A stretch of 32,000 bases of DNA from Candidatus Peribacter riflensis (GCA_001430755.1 CP013062.1:900001-932000), one strand, 5' to 3'; positions 11,642 through 31,160 are shown, counted from the first letter of the stretch. The notes: generated by a model from the letters alone, not told the origin. Numbers and translations are program-made.

Positions 11642-12722
11642 GTGGAAGATCTGCTGACAAAGCTTCGTGATCTCAAATCCGCGATCGCAACGGGGAAGGA
11701 CTCTCTTTGAGGCAAAAGGCCTTCCCAAGCGCATTCAGGACCTGACGGCGCAGACAAGTGCCCCGGATATCTGGAACGACCAGAAGCGCGCACAGGCCCT
11801 CTTCACCGAACTCAAGGTTCTCAAGAAACAATGGGAGCCGATGCAGAACATTGCCGATGAGGTGCAGGCACTGCTCGAGATGACTGAAGCCGCCTCGACG
11901 GAGGAACAGATCGCGCTCACGGAAGATGTGGAGCGGCTGGAAAAGGAATGGGCCGCCCTCGAAACGCAGCTTTACCTGAGCGGAGAATTCGACGCCTTCA
12001 ACTGCTACCTCACCGTGAGCGGCGGGGCGGGCGGCACCGAGGCGCAGGACTGGGCCGCCATGCTCATGCGTATGTACCTGCGATACTGCGAACGACAGAG
12101 GTGGAAGACGACCATTGTCGAGAAAACCGACGGGCAGGAGGCAGGCATTAAATCCGCCACCATCCACGTCGAGGGCGAATTCGCGTACGGCAATCTGAAG
12201 TGTGAAAAGGGAACGCACCGCCTCGTGCGCCTCTCGCCGTTCAACGCCAAGAGTCTGCGGCAGACCAGCTTCGCGCTCGTAGAAGTACTGCCGGAACTCC
12301 CGGAATCGACGGGGGTGGAGATCAATCCCTCGGATCTGCGGATCGACACCTACCGCAGCGGTGGAGCGGGCGGGCAGAACGTGAACAAAGTCGAGAGCGC
12401 CATCCGCATCACGCATCTTCCCACCGGCATCGTCGTCGCCTGCCAGAACGAGCGCAGCCAGCTCCAGAACCGCGCCCAGGCCATGAATATGTTGCGCGCC
12501 AAGCTGCTCGAGAAGGAACGGCTCGAACGGCAGGAGACAAAAGCGGAACTCAAGGGCGCCAGGCAGAGCGCCGACTTCGGTCAGCAGATCCGCAGTTACG
12601 TCCTGCATCCCTACCAGATGGTAAAGGACCTGCGCACAGATACCGAGACCAGCAATACCACAGGAGTGCTGGACGGCGACATCCAGCAATTCATTGATGC
12701 GGAGCTGAGACGAGGGAATTAA
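11642..12722 (+). CDS. prfB: Peptide chain release factor 2 with programmed +1 frameshift (frame 0: 11642-11707; frame +1: 11709-12722)
   Basis: SPF tripeptide, GGQ motif ([25 protein letters not shown]) and the slip site tct CTT TGA g at 11705-11711 preceded by GGGGAAGGA. The frame-0 peptide [22 protein letters not shown] starts at a GTG. Confidence 0.9.
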
Positions 12723-13268: not shown

Positions 13269-14492
13269 TCACAGCACTCCCGCGACAGTCTCCCATAGAC
13301 GAAACCCGAGAAAGCTGACCACGAGGATGAATCCGAGGAGCGGGATGACAAGAGGAAACGTCGGAATCCCTTTCGGATGGGGCTCGCGGATCTTCACGCA
13401 CACACAGGCGGCATTCACGAATGCGTAGACAATGAGCACGGTGAAGCTGGTGAGCTCGGCCAGCGAAACCAGTGGAAGCCAGAGCGCGAAGACGATCCCG
13501 AGTATCGACACCAGCACAGTGGCGACGACGGGAGTGTGCCTGGTGGGATGTACCCGGCTGAGCAAGCCGGGAAGCCAGCGCTGTCTGCTCAGGCCGTAGA
13601 GAATGCGCGAGCCTAAAATGACCTGCACCAGAATACCATTCGCAATGGCAAAGAGACCGATGAACGTGATGATGATGGGCGGAGAACCGGTCGTCCGCTC
13701 ATAGAGGAGTGCCAGCGGTGCATCGGTTGCAGCGAGCTCCTGTGCGGGAAGGTTGAGCACCGCAACCACCGCGATGACGCAGTACAGCAGTGTGGAGGTG
13801 AAAACGGCCAGCAGGATCCCGAGCGGGAGATTGCGGTGGGGATCTTTCACCTCCTCCGCGATGTTCGCCATATCCTCGAAACCGATGAAAGCGTAGAACG
13901 CGATGAAGGCGCCCGCGAGAATAGGGGGCCAGACCGCCATGTCCGCCGGAGGAACGAGCTCGATCGCACGCATTGGGAACGTGAACAACCCTTCGCGCCC
14001 CACCCAGATGATGAGCAGGAGTCCGCCGATCTCAATGAGTGTGAAGAGGGAGGCCATAAAGGCAGATTCCCTGATGCCGTACAGGGCAATCGCCGTCGCA
14101 ATCAGAACCGTGACCGCAATGACCGGGCCGGGTGCAACCGGAATAAAAACCTGCAGATACCCGACGAAGGCATTCGTCAGGACACCCACAGACACAATGG
14201 CGGAGAAGGTGACGAGCAGGCCGATGATGGTGGAAAGCGCGGGGATGCCGAACGCACGGACGGTATAGACCGCTTCGCCGCCGCTCCTCGGGTAGCGCGC
14301 CGAGAGCTCCGCGTACGAAAATCCTGTCAGCGCGGCCAGGACAGCAGCGACGACGAATGCAGCCGGTGCGAAGAGCCCGGCCTCTCCTGCCACTTTGCCA
14401 ACGAGCGAGTAGATGCCCGCTCCGAGAATGGAACCCAGCCCATAGAACGTGAAGAGCGAGAGCGAGAGCCGGCGCTGGAGCTGAGGGGACAT
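13269..14492 (-). CDS. APC-superfamily amino acid permease
   Basis: About 12 hydrophobic segments, including LGSILGAGIYSLVG and FSYAELSARYPRSGGEAVY. ATG at 14492; the longer track ORF reads through the tRNA gene on the opposite strand. Confidence 0.85.
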   Translation of the reverse strand: MSPQLQRRLSLSLFTFYGLGSILGAGIYSLVGKVAGEAGLFAPAAFVVAAVLAALTGFSYAELSARYPRSGGEAVYTVRAFGIPALSTIIGLLVTFSAIVSVGVLTNAFVGYLQVFIPVAPGPVIAVTVLIATAIALYGIRESAFMASLFTLIEIGGLLLIIWVGREGLFTFPMRAIELVPPADMAVWPPILAGAFIAFYAFIGFEDMANIAEEVKDPHRNLPLGILLAVFTSTLLYCVIAVVAVLNLPAQELAATDAPLALLYERTTGSPPIIITFIGLFAIANGILVQVILGSRILYGLSRQRWLPGLLSRVHPTRHTPVVATVLVSILGIVFALWLPLVSLAELTSFTVLIVYAFVNAACVCVKIREPHPKGIPTFPLVIPLLGFILVVSFLGFRLWETVAGVL

Positions 14493-14610
14493 GAGAGAAA
14501 TTACATACAGAATAGAGGGTCTCCGAGCGAAAAAACATGGCAGGTCAGGGAGCGACTGAGCGGCTGACACAGAAACCGAAAAATCTTCCCTCGCTGCGAG
14601 GAACGTCCGG

Positions 14611-14616
14611 TACAAT
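14611..14616 (+). promoter_or_regulatory. -10 box (TACAAT) 10 nt upstream of the mature tRNA-Ser 5' end
   Basis: tacaatcggga is almost identical to tataatcggga at 14769-14779. Confidence 0.35.
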
Positions 14617-14626
14617 CGGGATGCGT

Positions 14627-14717
14627 GGAGGGATGGCCGAGTGGTTGAAGGCGCACGACTCGAAATCGTGTAGGCCCCCAAAGGGTCTCGAGGGTTCGAA
14701 TCCCTCTCCCTCCGCCA
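14627..14717 (+). tRNA. tRNA-Ser, anticodon CGA, long variable arm, CCA encoded
   Basis: GGAGGGA acceptor stem pairs with TCCCTCC. Anticodon stem CACGA/TCGTG with loop CT-CGA-AA. T-arm GGTTCGAATCC. The 3' end is GCCA. Confidence 0.95.
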
Positions 14718-14746
14718 GTCTGCACCCCGCCGTACGAGACGAACGC

Positions 14747-14774
14747 ATGACAGTGTGTCGATGCCCTGTATAAT
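14747..14774 (+). promoter_or_regulatory. Sigma70-type promoter of the SGNH-like / carbamoyltransferase operon
   Basis: ATGACA (14747-14752), 16-nt spacer, TATAAT (14769-14774). The ATG at 14785 is 10 nt downstream of the -10 box. Confidence 0.45.
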
Positions 14775-14784
14775 CGGGAGCAAC

Positions 14785-16491
14785 ATGCCCGAAGACCTTC
14801 CGATTCAACACAGACACCGCACTGCCCTTTTTCTGAACCGCGCACAGAACGCCGCGACCCGCGGGCCAGCCGTCACCGATCTCTCGGCGACACTCCTGCC
14901 AAGCGACATCTGCCTTGTCGAAACCACCTTTCGCATCACGCCACAGAAGAAGCCGGCTGCGCGCGCACCCCTTCCCCTGCGTTCCCGTGATCCCCAGAGC
15001 ATTCTGCAGTACATCGCCCGACGCGCGTGGGCGCACCCGCAAACGAAAAAATCCGTGCAGAACGTGGCGCCTGCCGCTGTGCAATCCCTCAAGCCGCCTG
15101 CCGCTCCCCCGTCGCTCCCCCGCACGTGGGTGCGGACCAGCATCGGCAAAGCAGAGACGAAACCCGCCACGCAGCCAGCCCGAAAGAAACCCGCCCCCCG
15201 ATCCTGGAAACGGCGCTGCGCCACTGGATGCACCATCGCGCTCCTCAGCGCCGTCACGCTGGAGGGCGGATCGTTCGCGGCCTACTGGGCACTCACCGGT
15301 AGCCCGCTCTCGTTTGGGCAGGCAGCCGAAGAGCAGCAACGTATAGCCGCCGAAGCCATGGTGACGGACCCCAACCTTCTCGCGAGCGGAGGGGATGGAA
15401 AATTATCACAGCTCATCGTCCATCCGTACATGGGCTACACGCGCAAGATCGACCACGTCAATAACGTCCCGGGGCAGGATTACCTCCTCGGCCTCAAGCC
15501 GCTCATCGCCGCCTCGCCCGGAACAGCGATCATCGGCATTTTCGGAGGTTCCGTCGCGGAACAATTCTCCCAGGCGGGGAGCGGCGTCCTGAAACACCTG
15601 CTCTCGCAGGATCCGCGCTTCGCCGGCAAAGACCTGGTGATCTTCACCGCGGCAATCGGCGGCTTCAAACAGCCGCAGCAACTCATGTCGCTCAACTACC
15701 TCCTCTCACTCGGCCAGCACTTCGATGCCATCGTCAACATCGACGGGTTCAATGAAGTTGCGGGGCCGTCCGTTTCAAACATCCCGAAGAATGTCTCACC
15801 TTACTACCCGAGCGGCTGGTACCACCTCGCGGGGCGGCTGCCCGATACGCGAGTGCTGGAACACATCGGTGCCGTGGCCTACAGCCGCAAGCGCCGCAAA
15901 GATGCCGCCAGCCTGATGCTCTCCTCCACGCCTCTCGGCCACAGCACAACGGCACAGTTCCTCTGGAAAGGATGGGACGGCATGCTCGCCTCCCGCGTGG
16001 CGGAATCTGAGCTGGCCCTGCTGGAGCAGCCGTCCGCCCAAGTGGATGACACGCTGCAGCGCGGTCTGCCCTACGACTACCGCGGCGACGAACAGCTGCT
16101 CGCCGATCTCGTGGAGCAGTGGAAGCGCAGCTCCCTCCTCATGCATGGGATTGCGAAGGCGGAGGGCATCCCCTACTTCCACTTCCTGCAACCCAATCAG
16201 TATGTTCCCGACACCAAGCTGTTCTCCGCCACCGAACGAAGGACCGCACTCAACGTCGAAAGCCCCTACCGTCGATGGGTCATGCAGGGGTATCCGATCC
16301 TCCGGGAAGCAGGAAAGGATCTGCAGAAACAGGGTGTGGATTTCCACGACCTGACCGGGCTCTATGCCCGGGTGCCCGAAACGATCTACAAGGACGATTG
16401 TTGCCACGTGAACACCCTGGGCAACGCCATCCTCGGCCAGATCGTCGTGGATGCCATCCTCGGTGATCGCAACCGTCTGGCACGTCTCTGA
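14785..16491 (+). CDS. Membrane-anchored SGNH/DltD-like putative esterase or acyltransferase with a basic, disordered N-terminus
   Basis: About 150 aa rich in Pro/Ala/Lys/Arg, one TM segment (CTIALLSAVTL), then a large domain ending in DDCCHVNTLGNAILG, which resembles SGNH block V (DxxH). ATG at 14785 is chosen because the promoter overlaps the GTG at 14755. Confidence 0.6.
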   Translation: MPEDLPIQHRHRTALFLNRAQNAATRGPAVTDLSATLLPSDICLVETTFRITPQKKPAARAPLPLRSRDPQSILQYIARRAWAHPQTKKSVQNVAPAAVQSLKPPAAPPSLPRTWVRTSIGKAETKPATQPARKKPAPRSWKRRCATGCTIALLSAVTLEGGSFAAYWALTGSPLSFGQAAEEQQRIAAEAMVTDPNLLASGGDGKLSQLIVHPYMGYTRKIDHVNNVPGQDYLLGLKPLIAASPGTAIIGIFGGSVAEQFSQAGSGVLKHLLSQDPRFAGKDLVIFTAAIGGFKQPQQLMSLNYLLSLGQHFDAIVNIDGFNEVAGPSVSNIPKNVSPYYPSGWYHLAGRLPDTRVLEHIGAVAYSRKRRKDAASLMLSSTPLGHSTTAQFLWKGWDGMLASRVAESELALLEQPSAQVDDTLQRGLPYDYRGDEQLLADLVEQWKRSSLLMHGIAKAEGIPYFHFLQPNQYVPDTKLFSATERRTALNVESPYRRWVMQGYPILREAGKDLQKQGVDFHDLTGLYARVPETIYKDDCCHVNTLGNAILGQIVVDAILGDRNRLARL

Positions 16492-16527
16492 AAAAGTCAC
16501 TCGTGCCGCATCTGCTAGACTGACGGC

Positions 16528-16686
16528 ATGTCGAAATTTTCGATTTTCGCGGAACTGTGGCATTTCATGCGCGCGCGCAAGAAGTGGTGGCTCTTTCCGA
16601 TGCTCCTCCTGTTGCTCCTCCTGGGCCTGTTGCTCGTCTTCGCACAGACATCACCGCTCGCCCCCTTCCTCTACACGATCATCTGA
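16528..16686 (+). CDS. DUF5989 / SxtK-like small membrane protein (52 aa); absent from the ORF track because it is under 60 aa
   Basis: MSKFSIFAELWHFMRARKKWWLFPMLLLLLLLGLLLVFAQTSPLAPFLYTII matches my recollection of the DUF5989 pattern (ELW.F.R.RKK.WL.P....L.L...L.......APFIYT.F). Confidence 0.7.
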   Translation: MSKFSIFAELWHFMRARKKWWLFPMLLLLLLLGLLLVFAQTSPLAPFLYTII

Positions 16687-16696
16687 TCGCCGTCTC

Positions 16697-16927
16697 ATGA
16701 CGATCCCCCGCCCCCTCGCATGGCTCTGGGAAGGCTGGAAACGTGTGAGTCATGCGATCGGACTCGCGGTGAGTGTCGTCGTACTCGCGCTGTTCTGGCT
16801 CGTCGTCATCGGATGCTATGCCATCGTCTTTCGGATCATCCGCCTCTTTCAGAAAACTGAAACGCCCGCATCCTACTGGAGGGATCTCGCGCCCGAGAAC
16901 AGTGAGAGTCTTCTGCATCCGTTCTGA
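16697..16927 (+). CDS. SxtJ-like small membrane protein (resembles the C-terminal half of the family)
   Basis: MTIPRPLAWLWEGWKRVSHAIGLAVSVVVLALFWLVVIG...ASYWRDL...F. The stop overlaps the carbamoyltransferase ATG (TGATG). Confidence 0.5.
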   Translation: MTIPRPLAWLWEGWKRVSHAIGLAVSVVVLALFWLVVIGCYAIVFRIIRLFQKTETPASYWRDLAPENSESLLHPF

Positions 16928-18720
16928 TGGCAAAGCCCATCTTCATCCTCGGCATTTCCTGTTACTACCATGACAGCGCGGCCGTCCTTTTGAAGGACGG
17001 GGCAGTGATCTTCGCTGCGCAGGAGGAGCGCTTCACAAGAAAAAAGCACGACGAGGGCTTCCCGCAGAACGCGATTGCCGCCGCATTGCACTCCGCCGGC
17101 ATCACTGCACAGGATCTCTCGGCAGTCGTCTTCTACGAAAAGCCGCTCCTCAAATTTTTCGACCGGATCATTCCCTGTGCCATCGATGTCTGGCCGCGCG
17201 GCCACGGAACCTTTCAGCGTGCCGCGCACGAGTGGCTGACGAAGAAACTCTGGATCCCGCAGCTCATCCGGAAAGAGCTGAACTACGCAGGACCGCTCTT
17301 CTTCACCCGGCATCACGAGGCGCACGCCGCCTCCGCCTTCTACCCCTCAGGGTTCCCCGATGCCGCCATCGTCACGGTGGACGGCGTGGGCGAGTGGGCA
17401 ACGGCGACCATCGGCTACGGCCGGGGCACGGATCTCACACTCCGGCAGGAAATCCGCTACCCACATTCTCTGGGGCTGCTCTACTCGGCCCTCACCTACT
17501 ACCTGGGATTTAAGGTGAACAGCGCCGAGTACAAGGTGATGGGATTGGCCCCGTACGGAGAGCCGAAATACATGGACCGGATGTGGAAGCTCATCGATCT
17601 CAAGAAAGACGGAAGCTTCGCGCTCAACCGCACATACTTCACCTACGAGTACGGCAATACGATGACCGGCAGGGCATTGGAAAAGTTGTTCGGGCAACCC
17701 ACGCGCAAGCCGGAAAGTCCCCTCACACAATTCCACAAAGACATCGCGCGCTCGCTGCAGGAGGTGACGAACGCAGTGATGCTCCGCATCGTCCGGCACG
17801 CCCAAGAGCTCTGCCCGAGCGAGAACCTGTGTCTGGCCGGTGGCGTTGCTTTAAACTGCGTAGCCAACGGCCTCATCCTGCGCTCCGGCATCTTCAAAAA
17901 CATCTTCATCCAGCCGGCTGCCGGGGACGCCGGCGGTGCGCTGGGTGCGGCACTGTTCGTGTGGCACCAACACTTCAGAGGAGCGCGGAGCGAACGGATG
18001 GAACATGTCTTCCTGGGTACGGAATACAGCAACGAGAACATCGCCTCATTCTTGCGATCCAGAGGCCTTCCCTCGGAACAACTGGATGACACGGCGCTCA
18101 TCGAACGCGTGGCGTCACTCCTGGAGGGGGAAAATGCCATCGGCTGGTTTCAGGGGAGAATGGAGTTCGGCCCCCGTGCGCTCGGCAACCGCTCGATCAT
18201 CGCCGACGCACGCAATAAGGAGAACTGGAAGAAGGTGAACCTGAAGATCAAATTCCGCGAGTCGTTCCGGCCCTTCGCCCCGACCGTACCCGTCGAGCGC
18301 GTAAGCGATTACTTCACACTCGACCAGCCTCCGCCCTTCGGGCTACGGCCGGCAAGTCGCGAGAGCCCATTTATGCTCCTCGTTGCCGATACGCGGACCG
18401 AGAAACGCAGCGAGATTCCCGCCGTGACACATGTGGATGGATCGGCGCGCATCCAGACGATCAGCAGAAAACAGAATGCGCGTTACTACGATCTCATCAA
18501 GGCATTCGAGCGACACACCGGCTGCCCTGTGATCATCAACACCTCCTTCAACGTGCGCGGCGAGCCGATCGTGGAATCGCCGGAAGACGCGGTGAACTGT
18601 TTTCTCAAAACACACATGGAGTATCTGGTGCTCGGCAATCACCTCCTGACGAAGACGCAGATGCCCGCTGCGCTGCTCGGAGGGACAGAGGAGTACATGC
18701 AGCGGTTTGTATTGGACTAG
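16927..18720 (+). CDS. Carbamoyltransferase (NodU/CmcH/SxtI family)
   Basis: ILGISCYYHDSAAVLLKDGAVIFAAQEERFTRKKHD, HHEAHAASAFYPSGF, LAGGVALNCVANG, EFGPRALGNRSI and PAVTHVDGSARIQT. Confidence 0.9.
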   Translation: MAKPIFILGISCYYHDSAAVLLKDGAVIFAAQEERFTRKKHDEGFPQNAIAAALHSAGITAQDLSAVVFYEKPLLKFFDRIIPCAIDVWPRGHGTFQRAAHEWLTKKLWIPQLIRKELNYAGPLFFTRHHEAHAASAFYPSGFPDAAIVTVDGVGEWATATIGYGRGTDLTLRQEIRYPHSLGLLYSALTYYLGFKVNSAEYKVMGLAPYGEPKYMDRMWKLIDLKKDGSFALNRTYFTYEYGNTMTGRALEKLFGQPTRKPESPLTQFHKDIARSLQEVTNAVMLRIVRHAQELCPSENLCLAGGVALNCVANGLILRSGIFKNIFIQPAAGDAGGALGAALFVWHQHFRGARSERMEHVFLGTEYSNENIASFLRSRGLPSEQLDDTALIERVASLLEGENAIGWFQGRMEFGPRALGNRSIIADARNKENWKKVNLKIKFRESFRPFAPTVPVERVSDYFTLDQPPPFGLRPASRESPFMLLVADTRTEKRSEIPAVTHVDGSARIQTISRKQNARYYDLIKAFERHTGCPVIINTSFNVRGEPIVESPEDAVNCFLKTHMEYLVLGNHLLTKTQMPAALLGGTEEYMQRFVLD

Positions 18721-18773
18721 AATGATGTGAACCGGAACCGACAATTGACAGCCAAAAAACCATACAGCCGTTG

Positions 18774-18920
18774 ATGGAGAAGCCCCTTCCAGATGACCCT
18801 ATTGGGAGGCCTGACGCAAAGTACGATTGGGCCCCCAGAGCCTTGATTTTCGGCATAAAAAGGGTAACCTGTACAAGTTTGGAATATGTGTCCTTGTGGA
18901 CTAAAACGGACGTGGTTTGA
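18774..18920 (+). CDS. Speculative 48-codon ORF (possible precursor peptide) upstream of the ATP-grasp gene
   Basis: MEKPLPDDPIGRPDAKYDWAPRALIFGIKRVTCTSLEYVSLWTKTDVV. Its TGA (18918-18920) overlaps the TTG (18917-18919) that opens the ATP-grasp ORF. No SD sequence or clear promoter, and the region has lower GC than its surroundings. Confidence 0.2.
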   Translation: MEKPLPDDPIGRPDAKYDWAPRALIFGIKRVTCTSLEYVSLWTKTDVV

Positions 18921-20350
18921 ACAGGACGCGTGCACCTTCCCCCACCTGCATGGAGCCTCCCCTGGCTGGCCCCCCGAAGCGCACAGCGCGAAGGTGGGCA
19001 CCATCCCTCTCCTCTCTCGTTCGCGTCTCCACCATCGCCCCTGCAGCCCGATTCCCGGCGCTCACGGATGTAAGCTTGTCGAGCTTTTTTCCTGTCGGAA
19101 CCCAGTATTTCTACGGCTATCCGTCCGGTGAGCACTCGGGGTTCTTCAACGCCGTGCCGCCGTTCATCGAAGAGATCGTCGCAGCACGTGCGCTCTCGTG
19201 CGCCGGAGCGTGGGTGACTCCCGTCGTCTTCGCCTCAAGTATCGACCCGCTGACGCAGGAAATCCTGCGGGAGGATCTCGGTATGGCGCCGGCACGCCGG
19301 CAGCCGATCGTTCTGCCAAGTACGATCAATGAAACTCTCTCCGGCCCTCAGCGTAACCGCTCCATCGTGCGCGCCCTCTCGGGCATCCTCGCGCCGAAGA
19401 AATTCGTCATGGCCCAGCCCTACATGGACACATGTCTGCAGACGCGCTTCGCCCTGCCCCCCGCCCTCACGTTGTGGCTCAATGATAAGGTGAATATGCC
19501 GCGCTACGTCCCGCCTGCATTCCTGCCCGAACGCTACGCGGAATGCGCCAACGGCCGCGCATTCGCCGCTTCTCCCTCCACGTTCCCCACTCCCTGTGTC
19601 GTGAAGGTCTCCTCTTCGAGCTCGGGCGACGGGGTGCGTATCTGTCGCACTGAAGAAGAATTGAGGAATGCGCAGAGGGAATTTGCGAAGGTGAAGACAG
19701 GAATCATCGTCGATGAGCACGTCGAAGCCGTGCGGAATTTCGGCATTCAATTCGGCATTCCTTCAGATCCCGCGCAGGAGATCGAGCTCATCGGCGTGAG
19801 TGAACAGCTCACCACGCCCGAAGGCGCCTTCATTGGAGGACTGGTGGACCCCGATAACCTCTTCGCACGGATTGATGGAGTCAATGACTTGTTGCTCCAC
19901 CACGTTCTCCCGGCCGTGCGCGAGATGGGATGGTACGGCATAGGAGGTTTCGACGTGCTCGTAGACAGCCGGAACCGCTTCTTCATCGTCGACCCGAATT
20001 TCCGCATGACAGGCATGACCGCGTTCCTCTGCACCGCCCGCAACGGGACAGTGCGCAAGTGCATGGCGAGCTTCGTCGGAACATTCGAGGGAAACCGCAC
20101 GGATTTCGTGCGGGCAATCGCCCCCCTAGCCCGGCCGGGTGCCCGTCAGCGTCTGCACATTGTCGCACTCACGCACCGCAATGGCACTTTCCGCATGAGC
20201 GCGGCTCTGCTCTTCGGCCGGGATGAGGAACACGAGGTGCCCCGCCTCGCCGGGGAATTTCTCGCACTCGGCCTCCAGTCGCGCGCTCTCGAGAGGCTCA
20301 AGCGCAACGGGCGCGAACACTATCCGGATCTGCCCGGGGCTTCGGTGTGA
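18917..20350 (+). CDS. ATP-grasp fold ligase; start uncertain (TTG 18917, ATG 18950, or a TTG near 19075)
   Basis: PCVVKVSSSSSGDGVRIC, IIVDEHVE and GIGGFDVLVDSRNRFFIVDPNFRMTG are ATP-grasp core motifs. The first ~50 residues are Pro/Arg/Ser-rich and may not be translated. Confidence 0.7.
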   Translation: MNRTRAPSPTCMEPPLAGPPKRTARRWAPSLSSLVRVSTIAPAARFPALTDVSLSSFFPVGTQYFYGYPSGEHSGFFNAVPPFIEEIVAARALSCAGAWVTPVVFASSIDPLTQEILREDLGMAPARRQPIVLPSTINETLSGPQRNRSIVRALSGILAPKKFVMAQPYMDTCLQTRFALPPALTLWLNDKVNMPRYVPPAFLPERYAECANGRAFAASPSTFPTPCVVKVSSSSSGDGVRICRTEEELRNAQREFAKVKTGIIVDEHVEAVRNFGIQFGIPSDPAQEIELIGVSEQLTTPEGAFIGGLVDPDNLFARIDGVNDLLLHHVLPAVREMGWYGIGGFDVLVDSRNRFFIVDPNFRMTGMTAFLCTARNGTVRKCMASFVGTFEGNRTDFVRAIAPLARPGARQRLHIVALTHRNGTFRMSAALLFGRDEEHEVPRLAGEFLALGLQSRALERLKRNGREHYPDLPGASV

Positions 20351-20517
20351 GAAGATACAACACATGTGTGCGGCTCTGCGCCCGGATCTTCACAAACATG
20401 TGGCATACAGAGCAGGACGTGGCGCACTGAAGACCCAAGAGGCCTACAATTTGGTCCTTTGCTTCTCTATGCCCTTTCCGACCGCCGCGCCCGGCAAAAG
20501 ACGGAAAGGTTTGCGAC

Positions 20518-20961
20518 ATGCGATACACTTCTCCCATGAACTTCCCCATCGAACTCCCGCCGCAAACGCTCGCCCTCGCCGTGGAATTGAAAATTCTGCC
20601 GGAGGATATTGACGAATTCTTCACGCGCGGAGGCGGACCCGGCGGCCAGAAGATCAACAAGACCGCGAGTTGCGTCGAACTCACCCACCGCCCCACGGGA
20701 ACCGTCGTCCGCGTGCAGCGCTTTCGGGAGCAGCACTTGAATCGCATCGCGGCCTACAAATTGCTCATCGAGAAACTGGAGGAGCACATCAAAGGGGCCG
20801 CCTCAAAGCGGCAGCAAGAGATCTTCAAGCTCCGCAAGCAGAAGCAGCGCCGCTCACGGCGATCCAAAGAGAAGATGCTGAAGCAGAAACATCACCGCAG
20901 CAGCGTCAAAGAGCAGCGTCAAAATGCCCTGCACCGGTCACTCGAGGAGCTGGGGCACTAA
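20518..20961 (+). CDS. arfB: ArfB-like peptidyl-tRNA hydrolase (RF-1 domain with GGQ plus a basic C-terminal tail)
   Basis: GGGPGGQKINKTASCVELTHRPTGTVV followed by a Lys/Arg-rich tail (KLRKQKQRRSRRSKEKMLKQKHHR). GGAAAGG lies 8 nt upstream of the ATG. Confidence 0.75.
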   Translation: MRYTSPMNFPIELPPQTLALAVELKILPEDIDEFFTRGGGPGGQKINKTASCVELTHRPTGTVVRVQRFREQHLNRIAAYKLLIEKLEEHIKGAASKRQQEIFKLRKQKQRRSRRSKEKMLKQKHHRSSVKEQRQNALHRSLEELGH

Positions 20962-21167
20962 ACGGCCTTCCCTGCCTGCAGTCTCTTCGCCAGCGTGCGC
21001 AGGTAACTCGCGGCAATCTTGATCGTGCGGTAATGACCCGTAGCGGGGTCGTACACGCGCTTCTTTTGGATGTTCGCCTTGAACGTTCGACGGGTGTGCC
21101 GCATGGAGTGGCTTCGGGTGTTCCCGAAGGTCGTCTGCTTGCCGGTTTTGACGCACCGTCGTGCCAT
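20958..21167 (-). CDS. rpmB: 50S ribosomal protein L28
   Basis: MARRCVKTGKQTTFGNTRSHSMRHTRRTFKANIQKKRVY. Its stop codon overlaps the stop of the convergent arfB-like gene (CTAA). Confidence 0.9.
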   Translation of the reverse strand: MARRCVKTGKQTTFGNTRSHSMRHTRRTFKANIQKKRVYDPATGHYRTIKIAASYLRTLAKRLQAGKAV

Positions 21168-21239
21168 TGCCGGCAAAGAGTACTGAAAGATGACAGCAGG
21201 CGCAAATGCTTTCCTCCTCTTTTCCGCTAGACTGGCCGC

Positions 21240-21923
21240 ATGCTCTCAAGCTTTTTAAGTCCGCCGTTTCTGATCTCCATCCTCATTGCCATTTCGGTGC
21301 ACGAAGCAGCCCATGGCTGGATGGCCGCCCGTCTGGGTGATCCCACGGCACACAATGCGGGGCGCCTCACGCTGAACCCCATTGCGCACATCGATCCGAT
21401 GGGCGCACTCATGTTCCTCATGGTGGGATTCGGCTGGGCGAAGCCAGTCCCCGTGAACCCTCTCTACTTCCACCGCCCCAAACGGGATACGGCGTTGGTC
21501 TCGCTTGCGGGACCCGTGAGCAATCTGCTCCTCGGCAGTCTCGCGTTCTTTGGGTTGGTCCTGATCCTTCGCGGCGAGATCGGAGGATCGGCCTTCGGCC
21601 TCCTGACCGTGGGTGCAAATAGGTCGGTGCTCGAACAACTGCTCCTGCAGATCCTCGGCAGCTCCGTCTTCATCAATTTGGGCCTTATGGCGTTCAACCT
21701 GCTGCCCATCGCACCGCTCGATGGATCGAAGGTCCTGCACATCTTCATCCCACTCCAGTATGAAGATCAGTACGAAACCTTCATGCAGCGGGGTCCCATG
21801 ATCCTGCTCTTCCTCATCCTCGCAGGCGTGTTCCTGAATGTCCCGCTGCTCTCGGGATGGGTGTTCGGCATCGTGAATGCGACCCTCAGGACGCTCCTCT
21901 TTCTCGCATCACCACTGCTCTAG
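21240..21923 (+). CDS. Site-2 protease family (M50) membrane metalloprotease
   Basis: HEAAH zinc motif, RLTLNPIAHIDPMG and NLLPIAPLDGSKV. Confidence 0.85.
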   Translation: MLSSFLSPPFLISILIAISVHEAAHGWMAARLGDPTAHNAGRLTLNPIAHIDPMGALMFLMVGFGWAKPVPVNPLYFHRPKRDTALVSLAGPVSNLLLGSLAFFGLVLILRGEIGGSAFGLLTVGANRSVLEQLLLQILGSSVFINLGLMAFNLLPIAPLDGSKVLHIFIPLQYEDQYETFMQRGPMILLFLILAGVFLNVPLLSGWVFGIVNATLRTLLFLASPLL

Positions 21924-22745
21924 CATCCAAGGCCGGGGATCTAAGGGCAGAGAAGCCGGACGCATCCGGGGAGCGATAGTTCCCGTCCGGCGCTTCAGGA
22001 GTGCGAGCACGCTCACGCCCTGACGGTACGGGCGGCCTCTTTTTTCCCATGCCCGCACGATGCGCCGTGCCTCACCGCCAAAAATCCATCGGAGGAGTGC
22101 ATTGACGGGAGCGGATGGGAGCGAGAGATCGGTTTGCCCGGGCCCGAGAGAGCGGCCGCGCAATCGGCTGAAGAGGCGCGAGAGTTTCGCGATGGGGTGC
22201 AAACGCGCGTTGAGAGCGGAGCACACGCATTCCTCCACCGAAAGACCCTCCCAGAGCATGCGAAAGCGCGGCAGGCTGTAGCGGCGCTCATGCTCGAAAC
22301 CCCGATCGTGCGGTCCCCAGAGCTCAGGATCACCGGGCGCCATCATGAGCAGGTAGGCACCGGGCTTCATGGCCGCAAGGAGCTGCGAGACTAAGGAAAA
22401 ATCATCCTGCACATGCTCCAGCACATCGAGAAAGAGCACGGCATCCGCGCGCTCCAGAAGGTCGCGGCAATCCTGCGGGGCGTATCCGTGACGGAATTCG
22501 ATGCCGGGAAAGCGCTGCCGGGCGAACGATACGGCATCGAGAGAAGGATCAATACCCACGCACGTGTACAGACGGTTGAATGCAGCCGTGTTCCCTCCTG
22601 TTCCGCACCCGACATCCAGAATGAGGCGCTCGCGGAAAGGCGGCAGCACCCGCGTGAGGAGAGCGCGAAAAATATCGCGGCGCCCCAGAAACCACCAGTG
22701 ACGCTCCTCGAGATCGGCATGAACCTGGAACTGCGGCAACTGCAT
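21909..22745 (-). CDS. Class I SAM-dependent methyltransferase
   Basis: ERHWWF, ILDVGCGTGGN (motif I) and VLFLDVLEHVQDD. ATG at 22745 overlaps the GT4 stop codon (TGATG). Confidence 0.8.
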   Translation of the reverse strand: MQLPQFQVHADLEERHWWFLGRRDIFRALLTRVLPPFRERLILDVGCGTGGNTAAFNRLYTCVGIDPSLDAVSFARQRFPGIEFRHGYAPQDCRDLLERADAVLFLDVLEHVQDDFSLVSQLLAAMKPGAYLLMMAPGDPELWGPHDRGFEHERRYSLPRFRMLWEGLSVEECVCSALNARLHPIAKLSRLFSRLRGRSLGPGQTDLSLPSAPVNALLRWIFGGEARRIVRAWEKRGRPYRQGVSVLALLKRRTGTIAPRMRPASLPLDPRPWMLEQW

Positions 22746-23953
22746 CACACAAGCCGGGAAGATTGCAAAATTCGCTCCATCCGCGCATCCCAGGCGACAT
22801 GGGCAATGAGGGTGCGGCGCTTCTCTTCGTTGATTCTGGGATGTGAGCATGCCTCTTCGATTGCCGCAGCCAGCGCAGGCGCATCGCCCGCCGGAAAGAA
22901 ATGGACGAGGGAGGGATCGATCACCCCCCGCAGCGGCGGCAGATCGGCACACACGGTCGGCTTGCCCGCAGCGAGGTACTCGAACACTTTTAAGGGAGAG
23001 GTGTCGCGCAGGAAGAACGGATGCAGCGAGGCGGGAGCGGGGTACACGCATACATCGGCAGCGGCGAGGATGGAAGGGACGCGGGCATTGGGGACCGGGC
23101 CCTCGAATCGCACATTCTCATCGCTCAGACCAAGTTGCCGGGCAATCGTCCGGTAGCGTTCCACCTGATCGCGCGGACCACCTATCACCCAGCAGAAGAT
23201 TCCCTCTCCTTCCTTACCTACCTTACCTACCTGACCTACCTTACCTTCCTTACTTCCCTCACCTCCCTTCAGAATCGCAACGGCTTCGAGCAATTCTCTC
23301 ACTCCTTTCTCAATCGTCCCCCGCGTGACGAGCGACCCCACGTACACCGCAATCCTACGATCGGGAGGCAGTTGCCATTCGCGACGCGCATCGGCCGATG
23401 ACAGAAGATGCGCAAAACGCTGCGGATCCACACCGTCGCCCTCTGTCACCACCTGCTCAGGATCGATCCCCCATGCGATGAGCGCATCGCGCATGGGAGT
23501 GGTGAGGCAGACAACGAGACGGCATTGACGGCATGTGCGAACGAATGCCGCAGTACGCAACGGAAGCGTGTGGAGCTCCAGAATCACAGGCATGCCGGTG
23601 GCGAGCAGAGAAGGCGCGAGCCGCGGCGAGCGCGTGTAGAGCAGATCCGCAGGATGCGAACGCAGAAATATGCGCAGAGCCCGCTCGTAGGAGCGCATCG
23701 TGAAGAAAAAAGCGAGCGGACCGGGGATCCACCGGGCGTTGAGTGCGTCGAACACGGGCAGGCGCGTCACGTCGAATGTTTGCTGCAGACCATAGTAGGA
23801 ACGCGGGTCTTTGCGCACCGTGCCGTGCACGTCAGGGGCCACGACCGTGACGGAGTGACCGAGCCGCGTCATCGCCGCACACACCTGCGCGATCTGGTGG
23901 CCGTGCGCTTTCTCGGTGGGGAAACGCGCCTGTGAAATATAGGTGATCCGCAT
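22745..23953 (-). CDS. GT4-family glycosyltransferase with an in-frame low-complexity linker insert
   Basis: MRITYISQARFPTEKAHGHQI at the N-terminus and the C-terminal SPLKVFEYLAAGKPTV (EX7E-like). ATG at 23953. Confidence 0.85.
   Translation of the reverse strand: MRITYISQARFPTEKAHGHQIAQVCAAMTRLGHSVTVVAPDVHGTVRKDPRSYYGLQQTFDVTRLPVFDALNARWIPGPLAFFFTMRSYERALRIFLRSHPADLLYTRSPRLAPSLLATGMPVILELHTLPLRTAAFVRTCRQCRLVVCLTTPMRDALIAWGIDPEQVVTEGDGVDPQRFAHLLSSADARREWQLPPDRRIAVYVGSLVTRGTIEKGVRELLEAVAILKGGEGSKEGKVGQVGKVGKEGEGIFCWVIGGPRDQVERYRTIARQLGLSDENVRFEGPVPNARVPSILAAADVCVYPAPASLHPFFLRDTSPLKVFEYLAAGKPTVCADLPPLRGVIDPSLVHFFPAGDAPALAAAIEEACSHPRINEEKRRTLIAHVAWDARMERILQSSRLV
23212..23265. repeat. Six tandem 9-bp repeats (consensus CCTTACCTA) inside the GT4 gene, in frame
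   Basis: ccttaccta ccttaccta cctgaccta ccttacctt ccttacttc cctcacctc. These encode EGKVGQVGKVGKEGEG. Confidence 0.75.
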
Positions 23954-23957
23954 GGAA

Positions 23958-24992
23958 TCAGAAGAGGTGCTCGACGGCATAGGCGAGAAAACGCGGGGCC
24001 GAGAGGAATTTTTCGAACGCGTAGCGCGCTGAAACCTGCATGGTGAACCAGCGCTGATCGGAACAGGTGGCCCAGAAATCCGCCACGATCTCGTCGATGC
24101 GCAGAAGATCGGCAATGTGAATCTGCAGAATAAAGGAGGAGTACTCGACGATGCCCTCGAGCGGCAGGCGCACATCGGTATTGAGTAGAATCGGCACGCG
24201 CCCGAGACTCAGCGCTTCGTAGAAGCGCAGCGAGTAGTTGCCGTCGCCCCGTATGCAGAGCACGAAATCGGAGGCCAGCATGTTTTCGATGTACTCGCGG
24301 CGCGCCAGAGCTGGATCGAGACGGATCGTCTTGGCATGTGCGGAGTGGCTGGAGCGCAGGAGGAAGTTTGTCTGGATGCACCTGCTCCGCGCGAGGGATG
24401 CGAGAGCGCGACGACGGAGCCAGAGCCCCTTGATGAAGGAGCGGCTCTGCGGGTAGCCGGAAAGAAGCGCCCAGGCCTCATGCGGCAGCGCCTGCAGAAA
24501 AGACCCGATGGCGTTCTTCGTATTCTTGTACTGCGCCCATCCGCAGAACCCGATGACGGGGGGCGCATCCGTCTTGTCACGAACAAAGAGGCCCTTCCCC
24601 TTCAGGTCCTCCGCATAGGCCGGCATGATGTGCTCGTCCTCGCGAAGCTTCGATTCGTACTGCGAGGTACGGAAGGCGATGGCATTGTCGAGTGCGACCG
24701 GACCCGTGCCGTCCCCGTGCCAGAAGGTGATGATGCGCTTGTTGTGCCGCGCGGCTGTCGTCTGGCACCGCTTCAGATACTCCGCGCGGTCCGCGACCGA
24801 CGGATAGTTGTGCGGAAGCAGGTGCACATCGGCACGCGCGGGATCCGTCTCGATCGCAATGAGAGGATCTTTGAGATCGCGGAACGCCTCTTTCTGGAAG
24901 AGTTGGCGTGTGGGCAGATCCTCTGGCAAGTTCGGCAGGAGGAGAGGAACCAAGGGGACCCCCGGCAGCCGCTCGAAGTAGACGCGCTTCAC
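23958..24992 (-). CDS. Exostosin-like (GT47-type) glycosyltransferase
   Basis: FVLCIRGDGNYSLRFYEALSLGRVPILLNTDVRLPLE matches the exostosin C-terminal pattern. GTG start. Confidence 0.7.
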   Translation of the reverse strand: MKRVYFERLPGVPLVPLLLPNLPEDLPTRQLFQKEAFRDLKDPLIAIETDPARADVHLLPHNYPSVADRAEYLKRCQTTAARHNKRIITFWHGDGTGPVALDNAIAFRTSQYESKLREDEHIMPAYAEDLKGKGLFVRDKTDAPPVIGFCGWAQYKNTKNAIGSFLQALPHEAWALLSGYPQSRSFIKGLWLRRRALASLARSRCIQTNFLLRSSHSAHAKTIRLDPALARREYIENMLASDFVLCIRGDGNYSLRFYEALSLGRVPILLNTDVRLPLEGIVEYSSFILQIHIADLLRIDEIVADFWATCSDQRWFTMQVSARYAFEKFLSAPRFLAYAVEHLF

Positions 24993-25049
24993 GTCGGCCA
25001 GTATAGGCTGGTGGAAAGCGGAAATCTCGCTTAGAAAGAGGAAATACCC

Positions 25050-25055
25050 TATGAT
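25050..25055 (+). promoter_or_regulatory. -10 box (TATGAT) 11 nt upstream of the ATG at 25067
   Basis: cccTATGATaaaactccatcATG, with no SD sequence in between. Confidence 0.3.
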
Positions 25056-25066
25056 AAAACTCCATC

Positions 25067-25702
25067 ATGAAAAGCTTCATCGACAAGTATTACCGCTACA
25101 TCCGGCCCCTGCGACCCCTCTACGGGTGGATCGTGGATACCAAAAGCAGACTGCACTGCTCGCAGAGAGCAGAGGAGTGGAAACAGAGAGGCTTTCGCGG
25201 CGCAAAACTGGATGTGTGCGGGGGGAGGAATCCCTACAACGAGCAGGAGTACCTCAATGTCGACATGGTCCCTTTTCCCAAAGTGGATTTGGCGTTCGAC
25301 ATCACGCAGCGTTTTCCCATCGAAGACGGGGTGATTGCAGAAGTGGTATCCGTCGCGACCTTGGAACACCTGCGCAGAGCCCAAGTGGATCACGTGCTCC
25401 GGGAATTTTTCCGCATCCTCGCACCGGGCGGGCTCCTCCAGGTCTCGACACCCGATGTCGAAGCGTTGGCCCGCGCCATTCTGGACCATGAAAATATCGA
25501 GCTCGTGAACCAGTACCTGTTCGGCAAGTTCAAATCTGATGCGACCGAACGTGAAGACCTGCACAAGTGGTTCTACCCCGCCGGCCAGATGATCGGGCTG
25601 CTGCAGAGCATCGGATTTGTTTCTGTGCGACAGGTTCCCATGACCATCTCCCTGCACGACCCGCGCCTGAATTACCTCATCGAGGCCGTGAAACCTTCGT
25701 AG
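25067..25702 (+). CDS. Class I SAM-dependent methyltransferase (Methyltransf_11-like)
   Basis: KLDVCGG (degenerate motif I), VVSVATLEHL and RILAPGGLLQVSTPD. Confidence 0.75.
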   Translation: MKSFIDKYYRYIRPLRPLYGWIVDTKSRLHCSQRAEEWKQRGFRGAKLDVCGGRNPYNEQEYLNVDMVPFPKVDLAFDITQRFPIEDGVIAEVVSVATLEHLRRAQVDHVLREFFRILAPGGLLQVSTPDVEALARAILDHENIELVNQYLFGKFKSDATEREDLHKWFYPAGQMIGLLQSIGFVSVRQVPMTISLHDPRLNYLIEAVKPS

Positions 25703-26015
25703 GCGTACAGCTTTCCCCTGCTTTCCCATCCCGCGCTCGTACGACCAGCTCCTCGGCCCCGCCTTCAAATGGAACAGCCTCCGCTTCGCTGTCCGGACCG
25801 CATTGCCAACTCTCTGGTACTACATAACTCGCCCTGCTCTGCCTCCATCTGGCGAACCGGTTCCAATCACTAAAATCCCTGCAATGGAACAACCGCGCGA
25901 AGCGCTGGGTGGCTCTGCCGGGACCCAGCGCTGGAGCGCAACCACTCAGGGAAAGGATGGTGCGTGGAAGGAAAACCGCAGGTTGTCCTTCCACGAAAAA
26001 CCGGCCCTGTGCACG

Positions 26016-26897
26016 ATGAATATTTTGCCGCCCATGATGACGGTGTGGTACCACTTTGCGAAGAAGAATATCGGTGACGGAGCGGACATCGCGATCTTTG
26101 ATTGCACAGGCAGGCTCGATCCGAAGGAATTTCCAGATGCGCGCGTACTGCCCTTTCTCAATTTTTACGCGGCAACGAAGGGGAATGAATTCATCCGGCA
26201 CATTGCGCGAAACCGCCGCATCGCCTGGATCTGCGATGACGACATGTTTCTGATGAGCGATACATGCCTGCACATCCTCCAACGGGAATTTGCCGTGTCC
26301 GGCACGGCCTCCGTGAGTTTTCGGCCGCGTGAGTGGTGGGAATTCGATTTTGACGGAAAGCGCGTCCAGCCAAGCAGCAGCTACTGCCTCGCCGTCGACC
26401 GCGAGATCTTCATGCATGAGAAACTATCGCTCTCACCGGCACCGGATAACCCGCATCCAGCCCTCCTCACCCGTCCCCCGCGCCGCTACGACACTTTCGA
26501 CAAAGCTAATGAAATTCTTCTCAAGAAAAACTACCGCTGCGCGATCGTATCCCCCAAGGAACGCCAAAAGTGCGTCGCGGAATTCAGCGGACTCAGCGGA
26601 GCCGTCATGCTCCTGTACCACTTCAGAAGCCCGCAACAAACACTGGGCTACTTCCGCTCGGCTCCGCCTGATCGCTGGAGCGGGAACCTGCTCTTCGGGC
26701 TCATGAGCGCCATGCTTTCGGTCTGCACGATTCAGGATCTGTACGCAAAACTGAAAGGCCGTCCCTATCCGCTCCCTTCTCTGCCAAAACGCAACGAGCT
26801 GCTGCAGATCGTGGAGGAGCGCCGTCCGTTCATCCGCCCTGACCAGACGCTGGAGGCAGTGGAAAAAACGAGTGCCCGGTTGCACGCGGCGTTATGA
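26016..26897 (+). CDS. Hypothetical protein, possibly a GT-A-like glycosyltransferase; start uncertain (26016 or 25884)
   Basis: DIAIFDCTG and WICDDDMF (DxD-like) in the N-terminal half. The context is a glycan cluster. The call is weak. Confidence 0.45.
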   Translation: MNILPPMMTVWYHFAKKNIGDGADIAIFDCTGRLDPKEFPDARVLPFLNFYAATKGNEFIRHIARNRRIAWICDDDMFLMSDTCLHILQREFAVSGTASVSFRPREWWEFDFDGKRVQPSSSYCLAVDREIFMHEKLSLSPAPDNPHPALLTRPPRRYDTFDKANEILLKKNYRCAIVSPKERQKCVAEFSGLSGAVMLLYHFRSPQQTLGYFRSAPPDRWSGNLLFGLMSAMLSVCTIQDLYAKLKGRPYPLPSLPKRNELLQIVEERRPFIRPDQTLEAVEKTSARLHAAL

Positions 26898-26932
26898 AAC
26901 GAACGACGCTGCGCACGCGATACTCCCGCATA

Positions 26933-27433
26933 TTATTTTACAGAGAGATCCATCCCCAAGAGTTTCCACGCGTCGCCTTCGCGCGCGTACTTCAAGTTGA
27001 AAAGCATCTTCGTCGCCTCGATACGGTAGAACCCCTGCAAAGTCAGAATGTTTTTCTCGTCGATGGAAGGCTGTGCATTGAACGTGGGCAAGCCGGATGT
27101 GATGGACTTCTGCACCTCGCGGCCGAAGGGCATGAACCCCGCGAAAGCCTGTGCGATTTTTTCGGGCGTGGTCTGCCTCTGCCAGATAGCGGAAATATTG
27201 CCGTAGAAGCCTGCGAAGTCTTTCTGGGTGAGCGCGCGGGCAAAATCCCCCATCGTCCTGTTGACGAGCGCCGTCTCTTCCTCGCGACTGGGAAGCGGCA
27301 GAGCGCCCTGCGCAGACGGGCTCTGCGCCTGCTGCCCTGAAAGGCTGAACCAGCCACTCCATACCGCAATACCAACACTCACGATTGCAACGAGGACAAC
27401 GACCGGCAGGATGATCTTCCAGTGGCGGAACAT
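26933..27433 (-). CDS. Membrane-anchored hypothetical protein (166 aa)
   Basis: N-terminal TM segment (IILPVVVLVAIVSVGIAVW) followed by a soluble domain. Last gene of the minus-strand glycan operon. Confidence 0.6.
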   Translation of the reverse strand: MFRHWKIILPVVVLVAIVSVGIAVWSGWFSLSGQQAQSPSAQGALPLPSREEETALVNRTMGDFARALTQKDFAGFYGNISAIWQRQTTPEKIAQAFAGFMPFGREVQKSITSGLPTFNAQPSIDEKNILTLQGFYRIEATKMLFNLKYAREGDAWKLLGMDLSVK

Positions 27434-27462
27434 TCAAGGGGAGAGGAAAAGCAGACCCAGAT

Positions 27463-30750: not shown

Positions 30751-31160
30751 GAGACGTCACGGAAAACTTTTGCCTGCGCGTCACCGGGGTACGGACCCTG
30801 CTTCACCTCGATGAAGCGCGTCGGTTTGAGCATCGAAACGGTGTGACCGCCCGCGAGAAAGAGCATGCAATCACCGTCAGAGAACGCCTCTTCGGCGACG
30901 ACATTCCAAGCATCATCGAAGATGGTGACTTTCATCTCGCCACGCTCGATGTAGAGGAACTCCGCCGCCTGGCGGGATTCCACCGTGATGCCCGGGTGCC
31001 GATGGGGCCGGACACTGTGTCCGGCGGGGCGCTCGAACATGCCAAATTGAAAGGCATCGTTCTGCGAGGTGAAGAACTGCGAGGTATCGATACTAATGCC
31101 CTTGCGCACGAAGATGGCAAGCGTGCGTCCCTGGCTCTGGACAATGCGGAGCGGATCCAT
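30747..31160 (-). CDS. Cupin-fold protein (137 aa), possibly a sugar-nucleotide isomerase or WbuC-like
   Basis: Cupin motif 1 is GHSVRPHRH...E....G, and motif 2 is around GDCMLFLAGGH. ATG at 31160. The longer track ORF overlaps the divergent promoter region. Confidence 0.65.
   Translation of the reverse strand: MDPLRIVQSQGRTLAIFVRKGISIDTSQFFTSQNDAFQFGMFERPAGHSVRPHRHPGITVESRQAAEFLYIERGEMKVTIFDDAWNVVAEEAFSDGDCMLFLAGGHTVSMLKPTRFIEVKQGPYPGDAQAKVFRDVS

Follow-up and report, generated by a model that had tools for sequence, protein, structure and literature searches.

A saxitoxin-type carbamoyltransferase gene quartet with a divergent SGNH-fold protein in the reduced genome of Candidatus Peribacter riflensis

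Background

The closest described relatives of the gene group considered here are found in saxitoxin clusters, where sxtI, sxtJ, sxtK and sxtL have the consecutive accessions ABI75099-ABI75102 and sxtL lies directly after sxtI-J-K (PMC2684587, PMC2679770). The sxtL gene, a GDSL-lipase gene of 1281 bp, has been proposed to decarbamoylate toxins (PMC2679770, PMC2885083, PMC2684587, PMC3037375); sxtI, J, K and L belong to one phylogenetic class and, in Lyngbya wollei, sxtL was lost together with functional sxtI (PMC2684587, PMC3037375, PMC2885083). The role of SxtJ and SxtK is still only hypothesised in 2026, long after the saxitoxin cluster was described: both are "hypothesised to work in conjunction" with the carbamoyltransferase (bioRxiv 10.64898/2026.06.11.731795). 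A literature search with the term "DUF5989", the family of SxtK, found no paper. Here, we consider a quartet of these families on the plus strand of a 32,000-nucleotide (nt) stretch of the Candidatus Peribacter riflensis genome (GCA_001430755.1 CP013062.1:900001-932000; hereafter the window, with positions counted from its first letter). It encodes a signal-anchored SGNH-fold protein, a DUF5989/SxtK-type membrane peptide (K), a half-length SxtJ homologue (J) and a NodU/CmcH/TobZ-family O-carbamoyltransferase, the last three being called the trio below.

P. riflensis is a groundwater bacterium of the Peregrinibacteria, within the Candidate Phyla Radiation (CPR). Its genome is reduced to 1.2 Mb and it invests heavily in surface polysaccharides (PMC4736985). 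The quartet as such is already known as an uncharacterised module; what is added here is the P. riflensis copy with its divergent SGNH protein, the wide distribution of the module and its presence in a reduced CPR genome. The original prediction, made from the sequence of the window, had described the trio as fused into an operon with an SGNH-like protein, a link that is not new: as sxtL adjoins sxtI-J-K in saxitoxin clusters, the link is the known I-J-K-L association, in another gene order and with a divergent SGNH protein.

The four genes and their products

All open reading frames (ORFs) of the quartet were found where the original prediction had placed them. The first gene (14785..16491, +) encodes a protein of 568 amino acids (aa) that is 100 % identical to the hypothetical protein PeribacterA2_0866 of P. 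riflensis, and 36 nt separate its stop at 16491 from the start of the 52-aa DUF5989/SxtK-type peptide at 16528 (16528..16686, +), itself 100 % identical to PeribacterA2_0867. A further 10 nt lie between the stop of this peptide at 16686 and the start of the 76-aa SxtJ homologue (16697..16927, +), whose TGA (16925-16927) shares one base, in a TGATG junction, with the ATG at 16927 of the 597-aa carbamoyltransferase (16927..18720, +). The four families of the sxtI-J-K-L type are therefore adjacent on one strand, and on balance we favour the reading that this quartet is the P. riflensis copy of a widespread four-gene module and that, as proposed, the cassette acts on an exported surface glycan or glycolipid.

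The carbamoyltransferase matches PF02543 (5.5e-83, 279.7 bits) and PF16861 (2.4e-71, 239.2 bits), both over their full length, and its matches among solved structures are NovN (3e-104), GdmN (8e-100) and TobZ (4e-67). It carries GPRALGNRS, cited as a carbamoyltransferase motif (bioRxiv 10.64898/2026.06.11.731795), and misses the cut-off of the NodU equivalog NF041651 (157 vs 1000 bits). Identity to its DUF5989-linked homologues is 64-71 % within Peribacteria and 46-58 % in other phyla, and this level of identity across phyla suggests a conserved substrate class. The peptide encoded upstream matches PF19451 over residues 5-51 of 52 (E = 7.6e-21, 74.4 bits, far over the cut-off of 27); 30 homologues share 60-92 % identity with it, and R17, K18, W21, P24, G33 and A45-P-F..Y49 are invariant.

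The 76-aa ORF stays below the PF19588 cut-off (18.9 vs 24.4 bits) and covers only profile positions 47-93 of 99. All seven SxtJ-like orthologues from Peribacteria match SxtJ (7/7, best 1.2e-5), and a profile built from the seven aligns by hhalign (98.2 %, E = 3e-14) with columns 61-140 of full-length SxtJ, that is with its C-terminal half, so that the 76-aa protein can be considered a genuine half-size SxtJ homologue. A YW...QF-type C-terminus is common to short and full-length SxtJ, and no catalytic-looking residue is conserved between the two forms. The full-length architecture, of about 130-145 aa with an N-terminal membrane half, is not found here, nor is a longer SxtJ possible, because the DUF5989 gene ends 10 nt upstream and leaves neither room nor a start codon. 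Short SxtJ forms were seen in at least two further lineages, and SxtJ-SxtK fusion proteins, from which the topology could have been read, were absent from 87 loci. The NodU/CmcH/SxtI-family call, the overlap of this gene with the SxtJ-like gene and the 52-aa DUF5989/SxtK-like peptide, all parts of the original prediction, are thus borne out by full-length domains, the TGATG junction and the PF19451 score respectively, and the homology of the short SxtJ-like protein also held, though its Pfam cut-off was missed.

Neither Pfam, with PF13472 and PF00657, nor NCBIfam gave a match to the large protein (0 matches). An AlphaFold2 model of residues 149-568 (mean predicted local distance difference test, pLDDT, 92.5) was compared with the PDB using Foldseek and gave as its top match CgnD (8a2n, E = 7e-7), the crocagin hydrolase, which is a Ser/His hydrolase (PMC10070186). 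The next matches were GDSL esterases, acetylxylan esterases and the peptidoglycan O-acetyltransferase PatB, all with probability 1.0. Comparison by hhalign with the GDSL_2-type neighbours of DUF5989 genes (98.9 %, E = 1.5e-17) aligned the Ser, Gly, Asn and His blocks. As the match of the modelled fold and the profile-profile comparison agree, we consider the predicted membership in the SGNH superfamily to be confirmed; the SGNH call made at the outset is supported, even though no Pfam or NCBIfam profile recognises the protein.

On the plus strand, a hydrophobic anchor (15217-15294) precedes the catalytic domain (about 15421-16470), along which are found the motifs GIFGGSVA (Ser256, 15535-15558), GGFKQPQQ (15658-15681), DGFNEV (Asn323, 15742-15759), HFLQPNQY (16180-16203) and DDCCHVN (His541, 16393-16413). 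The invariant residues of the family fall in the motifs G-G-S, D-G-x-N and D-x-C-C-H; in core numbering S108, N175 and H393 are invariant and G145 near-invariant, and they line up with the GDS, G, ND and H blocks of GDSL_2 proteins. The canonical spacing is DxxH; here the invariant Asp stands four residues before the His (D-x-C-C-H), and position -3 of the window protein is occupied by a second Asp (DDCCH). A Cys-Cys pair, invariant or near-invariant in this SGNH subfamily (alignment A1), directly precedes the catalytic His; the classical GDSL_2 partners lack this pair, which could represent a vicinal disulfide or a redox feature of an external enzyme.

This subfamily is large, with more than 2,088 homologues in a first search, most of them without any Pfam domain, and about 2,961 representatives (50 % identity clusters) scoring E <= 1e-30. 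A typical member has 420-460 aa and starts a few residues ahead of the hydrophobic helix. Among 79 members, 16 have weak PF13472 matches and 17 weak ALGX matches; the subfamily also weakly matches the SGNH domain of AT3 proteins, and a few members carry Big_2 or LysM domains. The N-terminal helix is hydrophobic family-wide (median Kyte-Doolittle 2.23), with a net charge of +3 before it and 0 after it. From this charge bias, with which the Big_2 and LysM members agree, the N-terminus is predicted to be cytoplasmic and the catalytic domain to lie outside the membrane, which fits the single membrane segment and extracytoplasmic domain first described. The description "DltD-like" finds no specific support: DltD gave no Pfam match in the 79 family members and was absent from the top 50 fold matches, and the 32-kb window contains no MBOAT and no second SGNH gene.

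Ahead of the anchor, the called protein has a tail of about 145 aa (14785-15216, +) with 26 K+R against 7 D+E and an isoelectric point of 11.7. Its basic composition is as originally described. It is missing from most family members and not conserved among homologues; the GC3 > GC1 > GC2 coding-type signature is weakly kept in it. Alternative starts of the gene are found at 14755, 14761 and 15130, of which the last, a GTG, would yield 453 aa, a typical family size, and in a strain comparison the cluster members were nearly identical, with no difference but the start that was called, which gives 568 or 576 aa. The tail may be real, or translation may begin later, for example at GTG 15130. Two long antisense ORFs (14545-15339 and 14805-15257, both on the minus strand) overlap the upstream tRNA gene and the tail region and are probably high-GC artefacts; they increase the doubt about the tail, because they show how readily ORFs extend there.

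Distribution of the module

Using DUF5989 as the anchor, we scanned a collection of one genome per species, obtained at least 573 matching stretches and analysed the best 80 loci, to which the DUF5989-anchored counts below refer ("near" means within 4 kb unless stated). A carbamoyltransferase was near DUF5989 in 66 of the 80 loci, and in 65 of those 66 SxtJ was present too, so that the trio recurs in 65/80 loci and in many phyla, in line with the initial statement that SxtJ and SxtK homologues sit beside carbamoyltransferases in many bacteria. The sxt order (carbamoyltransferase-J-K) is found in 51 loci, and DUF5989 lies upstream of the carbamoyltransferase in 14, among them all Peribacteria (K, short J, carbamoyltransferase).

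Clustering of the neighbours identified, as the commonest partner of the trio, a membrane-anchored GDSL_2 protein (PF13472, E = 3.8e-10). When SGNH neighbours were called with two profiles, one for this GDSL_2 partner and one for the SGNH family of the window, a membrane-anchored SGNH gene was present in 30/80 loci, often on the same strand. In neighbourhood statistics of the kind suggested with the original prediction, 36 of 40 SGNH genes lay within 4 kb of DUF5989, a zone amounting to 46 % of the available sequence (p = 4.5e-9), so that SGNH genes are enriched beside the trio. Other recurrent neighbours of the trio are GT2, GT4, asparagine-synthase-like and DegT genes and a few MBOAT genes, the latter in only 4 loci.

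Sister Peribacteria have an arfB-like gene and an M50 peptidase gene followed by GDSL_2 SGNH, K, J, carbamoyltransferase and a second GDSL_2 SGNH, and the divergent SGNH protein of the window sits in the upstream slot held there by a classical GDSL_2 SGNH protein. The block made of the arfB-like RF-1-domain gene, L28 (minus strand) and the M50 gene lies 3' of K-J-carbamoyltransferase in the window (20518-21923) and 5' of it in the other Peribacteria (L008-L013, L031). This shift points to a local rearrangement coinciding with a change of genes, in which the GDSL_2 SGNH genes gave way to the divergent SGNH gene and an ATP-grasp gene.

True members of the SGNH subfamily of the window were traced as well. 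In one locus (L007), a 46 %-identical relative is divergently oriented beside K, a 78-aa J and a carbamoyltransferase, and six loci with homologues of the window SGNH protein have no carbamoyltransferase. A survey from the SGNH side covered 80 metagenome loci, 48 of them with at least 3 kb of flank; a carbamoyltransferase and DUF5989 adjoin the subfamily member on the same strand in 4-5 of the 80, two of which have the order carbamoyltransferase-(J)-K-SGNH, and the most frequent true neighbours of this otherwise solitary gene are a carbamoyltransferase and a GT2.

The complete quartet was also recovered in bacteria that are cultured and annotated. On pT173d of Ensifer canadensis (904624-908588, J3R84_RS37570-37585, L168), genes annotated as "GDSL-type esterase/lipase", a 143-aa hypothetical protein, "DUF5989 family protein" and "carbamoyltransferase" are followed in a row by a GT4 gene and, further downstream, by an oligosaccharide flippase gene; the 143-aa protein is SxtJ by profile (2e-31). 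Rhodobacteraceae SC52 has J, K and carbamoyltransferase, then an SGNH protein (1.2e-28). The locus L169 is likewise from a cultured bacterium and carries the quartet under the same kinds of annotation, in a GT4/flippase polysaccharide locus.

Some labels in the collection call for caution. The locus L009 (NYYK01000002.1, "Methanobacteriota archaeon") has the same E-values, scores and ORF lengths across the region as the Peribacter contig L008 and, as its matches equal those of that contig, is probably mis-binned; the labels of Methanosarcinales L085, Bifidobacteriales L087 and Clostridia L023 may be due to mis-binning too. We also inspected ten of the eleven loci with a lone DUF5989 gene (L027, L034, L038, L042, L044, L053, L058, L069, L071 and L083). 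They contain no carbamoyltransferase or SxtJ within 10 kb, belong to Latescibacterota/Krumholzibacteriia-type genomes and have housekeeping genes as neighbours (PRPP synthetase, APRT, cobalamin adenosyltransferase, SDR).

Transcription and neighbouring genes

Upstream of the first gene is a tRNA-Ser(CGA) (14627-14717, +), the sole Rfam match in 14400-19300, a scan that found no riboswitch in the putative leader or tail, or in the gap between the carbamoyltransferase and ATP-grasp genes. Between this tRNA and the first gene lies a promoter-like site (14747..14774, +; ATGACA, 16 nt, TATAAT; 11/12 matches), and a Shine-Dalgarno-like GGGAG (14776-14780, +) precedes the ATG at 14785. The promoter-like site is the only sigma-70-like match in 14400-20600 and is not significant alone, since one site was found where shuffled sequences give 1.2. 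A terminator scan gave 7 sites against 5.2 expected, none of them between the four genes, and in the carbamoyltransferase/ATP-grasp gap folding does not exceed that of shuffled sequences (z = 0.16). The four genes probably form one transcription unit with a promoter just 3' of tRNA-Ser, as the tight spacing and the single promoter-like site would fit; the 36-nt and 10-nt spacers and the overlap are compatible with the single unit first proposed.

Downstream of the quartet is the gene of an LdmS-like ATP-grasp ligase (18917..20350, +), with weak Pfam ATP-grasp matches, a match to NF047900 (1.9e-25) below the cut-off of that family and a match to PDB 7r8p (2.9e-16). Its reading frame begins 200-350 nt past the stop of the carbamoyltransferase, and its true start is probably near 19020-19100. 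The ligase gene that was originally seen to follow the trio is present, but nothing places it in a conserved module: an ATP-grasp homologue was near the trio in 0/87 loci, the 80 DUF5989-anchored ones included, and on this gene context the ligase is probably unrelated to the cassette.

Further downstream, on the minus strand, a run of glycan or glycolipid genes (21909-31493) encodes a S-adenosylmethionine (SAM) methyltransferase, a GT4, a GT47/exostosin-like protein, a PMT_2/GT-C protein, a GT2 and a DegT aminotransferase, and includes four ORFs without Pfam matches (25.0-27.9 kb) and a last one at 30747-31493. The GT-C, GT2 and DegT genes form an ArnB/ArnC/ArnT-like trio. The products of this run may synthesise what the carbamoylation cassette acts on.

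Elsewhere in the window, prfB (release factor 2, 11644-12722, +) has a classical programmed +1 frameshift, with a GTG start at 11644, the shift site CTT TGA G at 11704-11710 and continuation in the frame of the ORF 11667-12722.

Proposed function and alternatives

In the reading that we favour, the carbamoyltransferase would work in the cytoplasm, using carbamoyl phosphate and ATP to form carbamoyl-AMP and passing the carbamoyl group to a hydroxyl, a chemistry established for the family (TobZ, NodU) and presumed here. The DUF5989/SxtK peptide and the half-size SxtJ would hold or orient this enzyme at the membrane, within reach of a membrane-associated substrate, which from the gene context would most likely be a surface glycan or glycolipid, lipid-linked or still nascent, before its export. 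Outside the membrane, the signal-anchored SGNH protein would act on the same product as a serine esterase, removing or editing carbamoyl or O-acyl groups, as has been proposed for SxtL. A glycan or glycolipid is favoured as substrate because the window and the related loci hold glycan genes and because P. riflensis invests in surface polysaccharides; the abundance of glycan genes is also compatible with the envelope target of the original prediction. Any acylation, the substrate and the roles of SxtJ and SxtK are nonetheless what we infer.

Several points weigh against this proposal. For every member of the module, the assigned function is a reading of sequence and gene context, co-transcription is deduced from spacing alone, and the SGNH protein is likened to SxtL by family annotation. 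With the transferase in the cytoplasm and the hydrolase outside, the two could not contact a substrate simultaneously, so that any coupling must be sequential. SGNH neighbours are missing from 50/80 loci, and most members of the SGNH subfamily of the window lie away from carbamoyltransferases. Finally, carbamoyltransferase and SxtJ are both missing from the surroundings of DUF5989 in 11/80 loci, and DUF5989 is therefore not strictly a carbamoylation factor.

The SGNH gene might be a mere neighbour of the trio, with no functional tie to it, and serve a different envelope polymer, its product being for instance a glycan O-acetyl esterase or transferase. Both close and distant homologues of its subfamily occur in unrelated contexts, about 75 of the 80 metagenome loci have no carbamoyltransferase or DUF5989, and the weak ALGX and GDSL matches in the family are typical of polysaccharide O-acetyl enzymes. 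We nevertheless consider a simple neighbourhood unlikely, given that the gene is on the same strand with a 36-nt gap to DUF5989, that SGNH genes are enriched beside the trio across phyla and a paralogous one occupies the same slot in sister Peribacteria, that the same subfamily is found beside carbamoyltransferase and DUF5989 genes in independent loci with varied gene orders, and that sxtL provides a precedent.

Less probable still is a role of the cassette in tailoring a small natural product for secretion, comparable to that of sxtI-J-K-L in the saxitoxin pathway; the neighbouring ATP-grasp ligase might then build this product. The 32-kb window holds no other biosynthetic-cluster genes, the ligase is near the trio in none of the 87 loci, the recurrent neighbours are glycosyltransferases and a flippase, the host genome is reduced to 1.2 Mb (PMC4736985), and an identity of 46-58 % between carbamoyltransferases of different phyla is unusual for product-specific tailoring enzymes. 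In favour of the tailoring reading are the facts that the only pathway role assigned to these four families is in an alkaloid pathway, that the closest solved SGNH structure, CgnD, comes from a pathway with a carbamoyltransferase, that the closest solved carbamoyltransferases act on antibiotics and that an LdmS-like, dipeptide-type ligase is encoded downstream.

A trans-membrane carbamoyl relay, in which carbamate is activated in the cytoplasm by the carbamoyltransferase, passed across the membrane by SxtJ/K and transferred onto an exported polymer by the external SGNH protein as final carbamoyl (acyl) transferase, in an MBOAT-independent analogue of the MBOAT/AT3-SGNH O-acetylation systems PatA/PatB, AlgI/AlgJ/AlgX and OatA with the Cys-Cys pair by the His as a special feature, would account for a signal-anchored SGNH partner resembling PatB and AlgX-type transferases, for the lack of MBOAT in most trio-plus-SGNH loci and for the short external C-terminal tail in the most conserved part of DUF5989, but is very improbable, because SxtJ/K are tiny and share no catalytic-looking residue between short and long SxtJ, carbamoyl-serine enzymes are usually stable dead-end adducts (general enzymology), enzymes of the TobZ type hand the group straight to its final acceptor and 50/80 loci have no SGNH partner.

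Found across phyla and often accompanied by an SGNH gene, the trio forms a conserved module; the DUF5989 scan gave at least 573 matching stretches. That a CPR genome of 1.2 Mb has kept the module speaks for a basic cell-envelope role rather than toxin chemistry. The analysis also brings to light a large SGNH subfamily, of about 3,000 clusters at 50 % identity, that is invisible to Pfam and NCBIfam. Cultivable and genetically tractable carriers of the module exist in Ensifer canadensis T173, Melioribacter and Magnetospirillum UT-4.

Comparison with known systems

The two-domain architecture of TobZ, NodU, NovN and GdmN (Kae1-like and YrdC-like) is matched over its full length by the window enzyme, for which their chemistry, with carbamoyl phosphate and ATP, is presumed. 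None of these four enzymes is known to need SxtJ/K-type partners.

For the SGNH protein, CgnD is the best structural match, sharing the SGNH fold with Ser and His as catalytic residues and belonging to a pathway which likewise includes a carbamoyltransferase. By contrast, CgnD is a soluble peptide hydrolase of 299 aa, whereas the window protein is membrane-anchored and has a helical insert of roughly 115 residues. PatB/AlgX-type enzymes also have an SGNH fold like that of the window protein, which differs in having no MBOAT or AT3 partner, and sequence identity to the CgnD/PatB/Ape/AlgX-type enzymes is 13-14 %.

The loci of Ensifer canadensis pT173d and of Peribacteria L008-L013 have the same module on the same strand, with a carbamoyltransferase 50-71 % identical to that of the window; the Ensifer order is also SGNH-first, with glycosyltransferase and flippase neighbours. 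They differ from the window in that their SGNH protein is a classical GDSL_2 one (PF13472), against a member of the GGS...DGFNE...CCH subfamily in the window, and that their SxtJ is mostly full-length.

Finally, sxtI-J-K-L resembles the window quartet in the adjacency of an O-carbamoyltransferase, SxtJ, SxtK/DUF5989 and a GDSL/SGNH protein of roughly 425 aa, SxtL being likened to the window protein by annotation alone, and the function of both SGNH proteins, decarbamoylase in the case of SxtL, is a prediction. The order is I-J-K-L in the sxt block and SGNH-K-J-carbamoyltransferase in the window, where SxtJ has half the length, the SGNH protein is divergent and invisible to Pfam, and the genes stand, with no toxin pathway genes around them, in a context of glycan biosynthesis.

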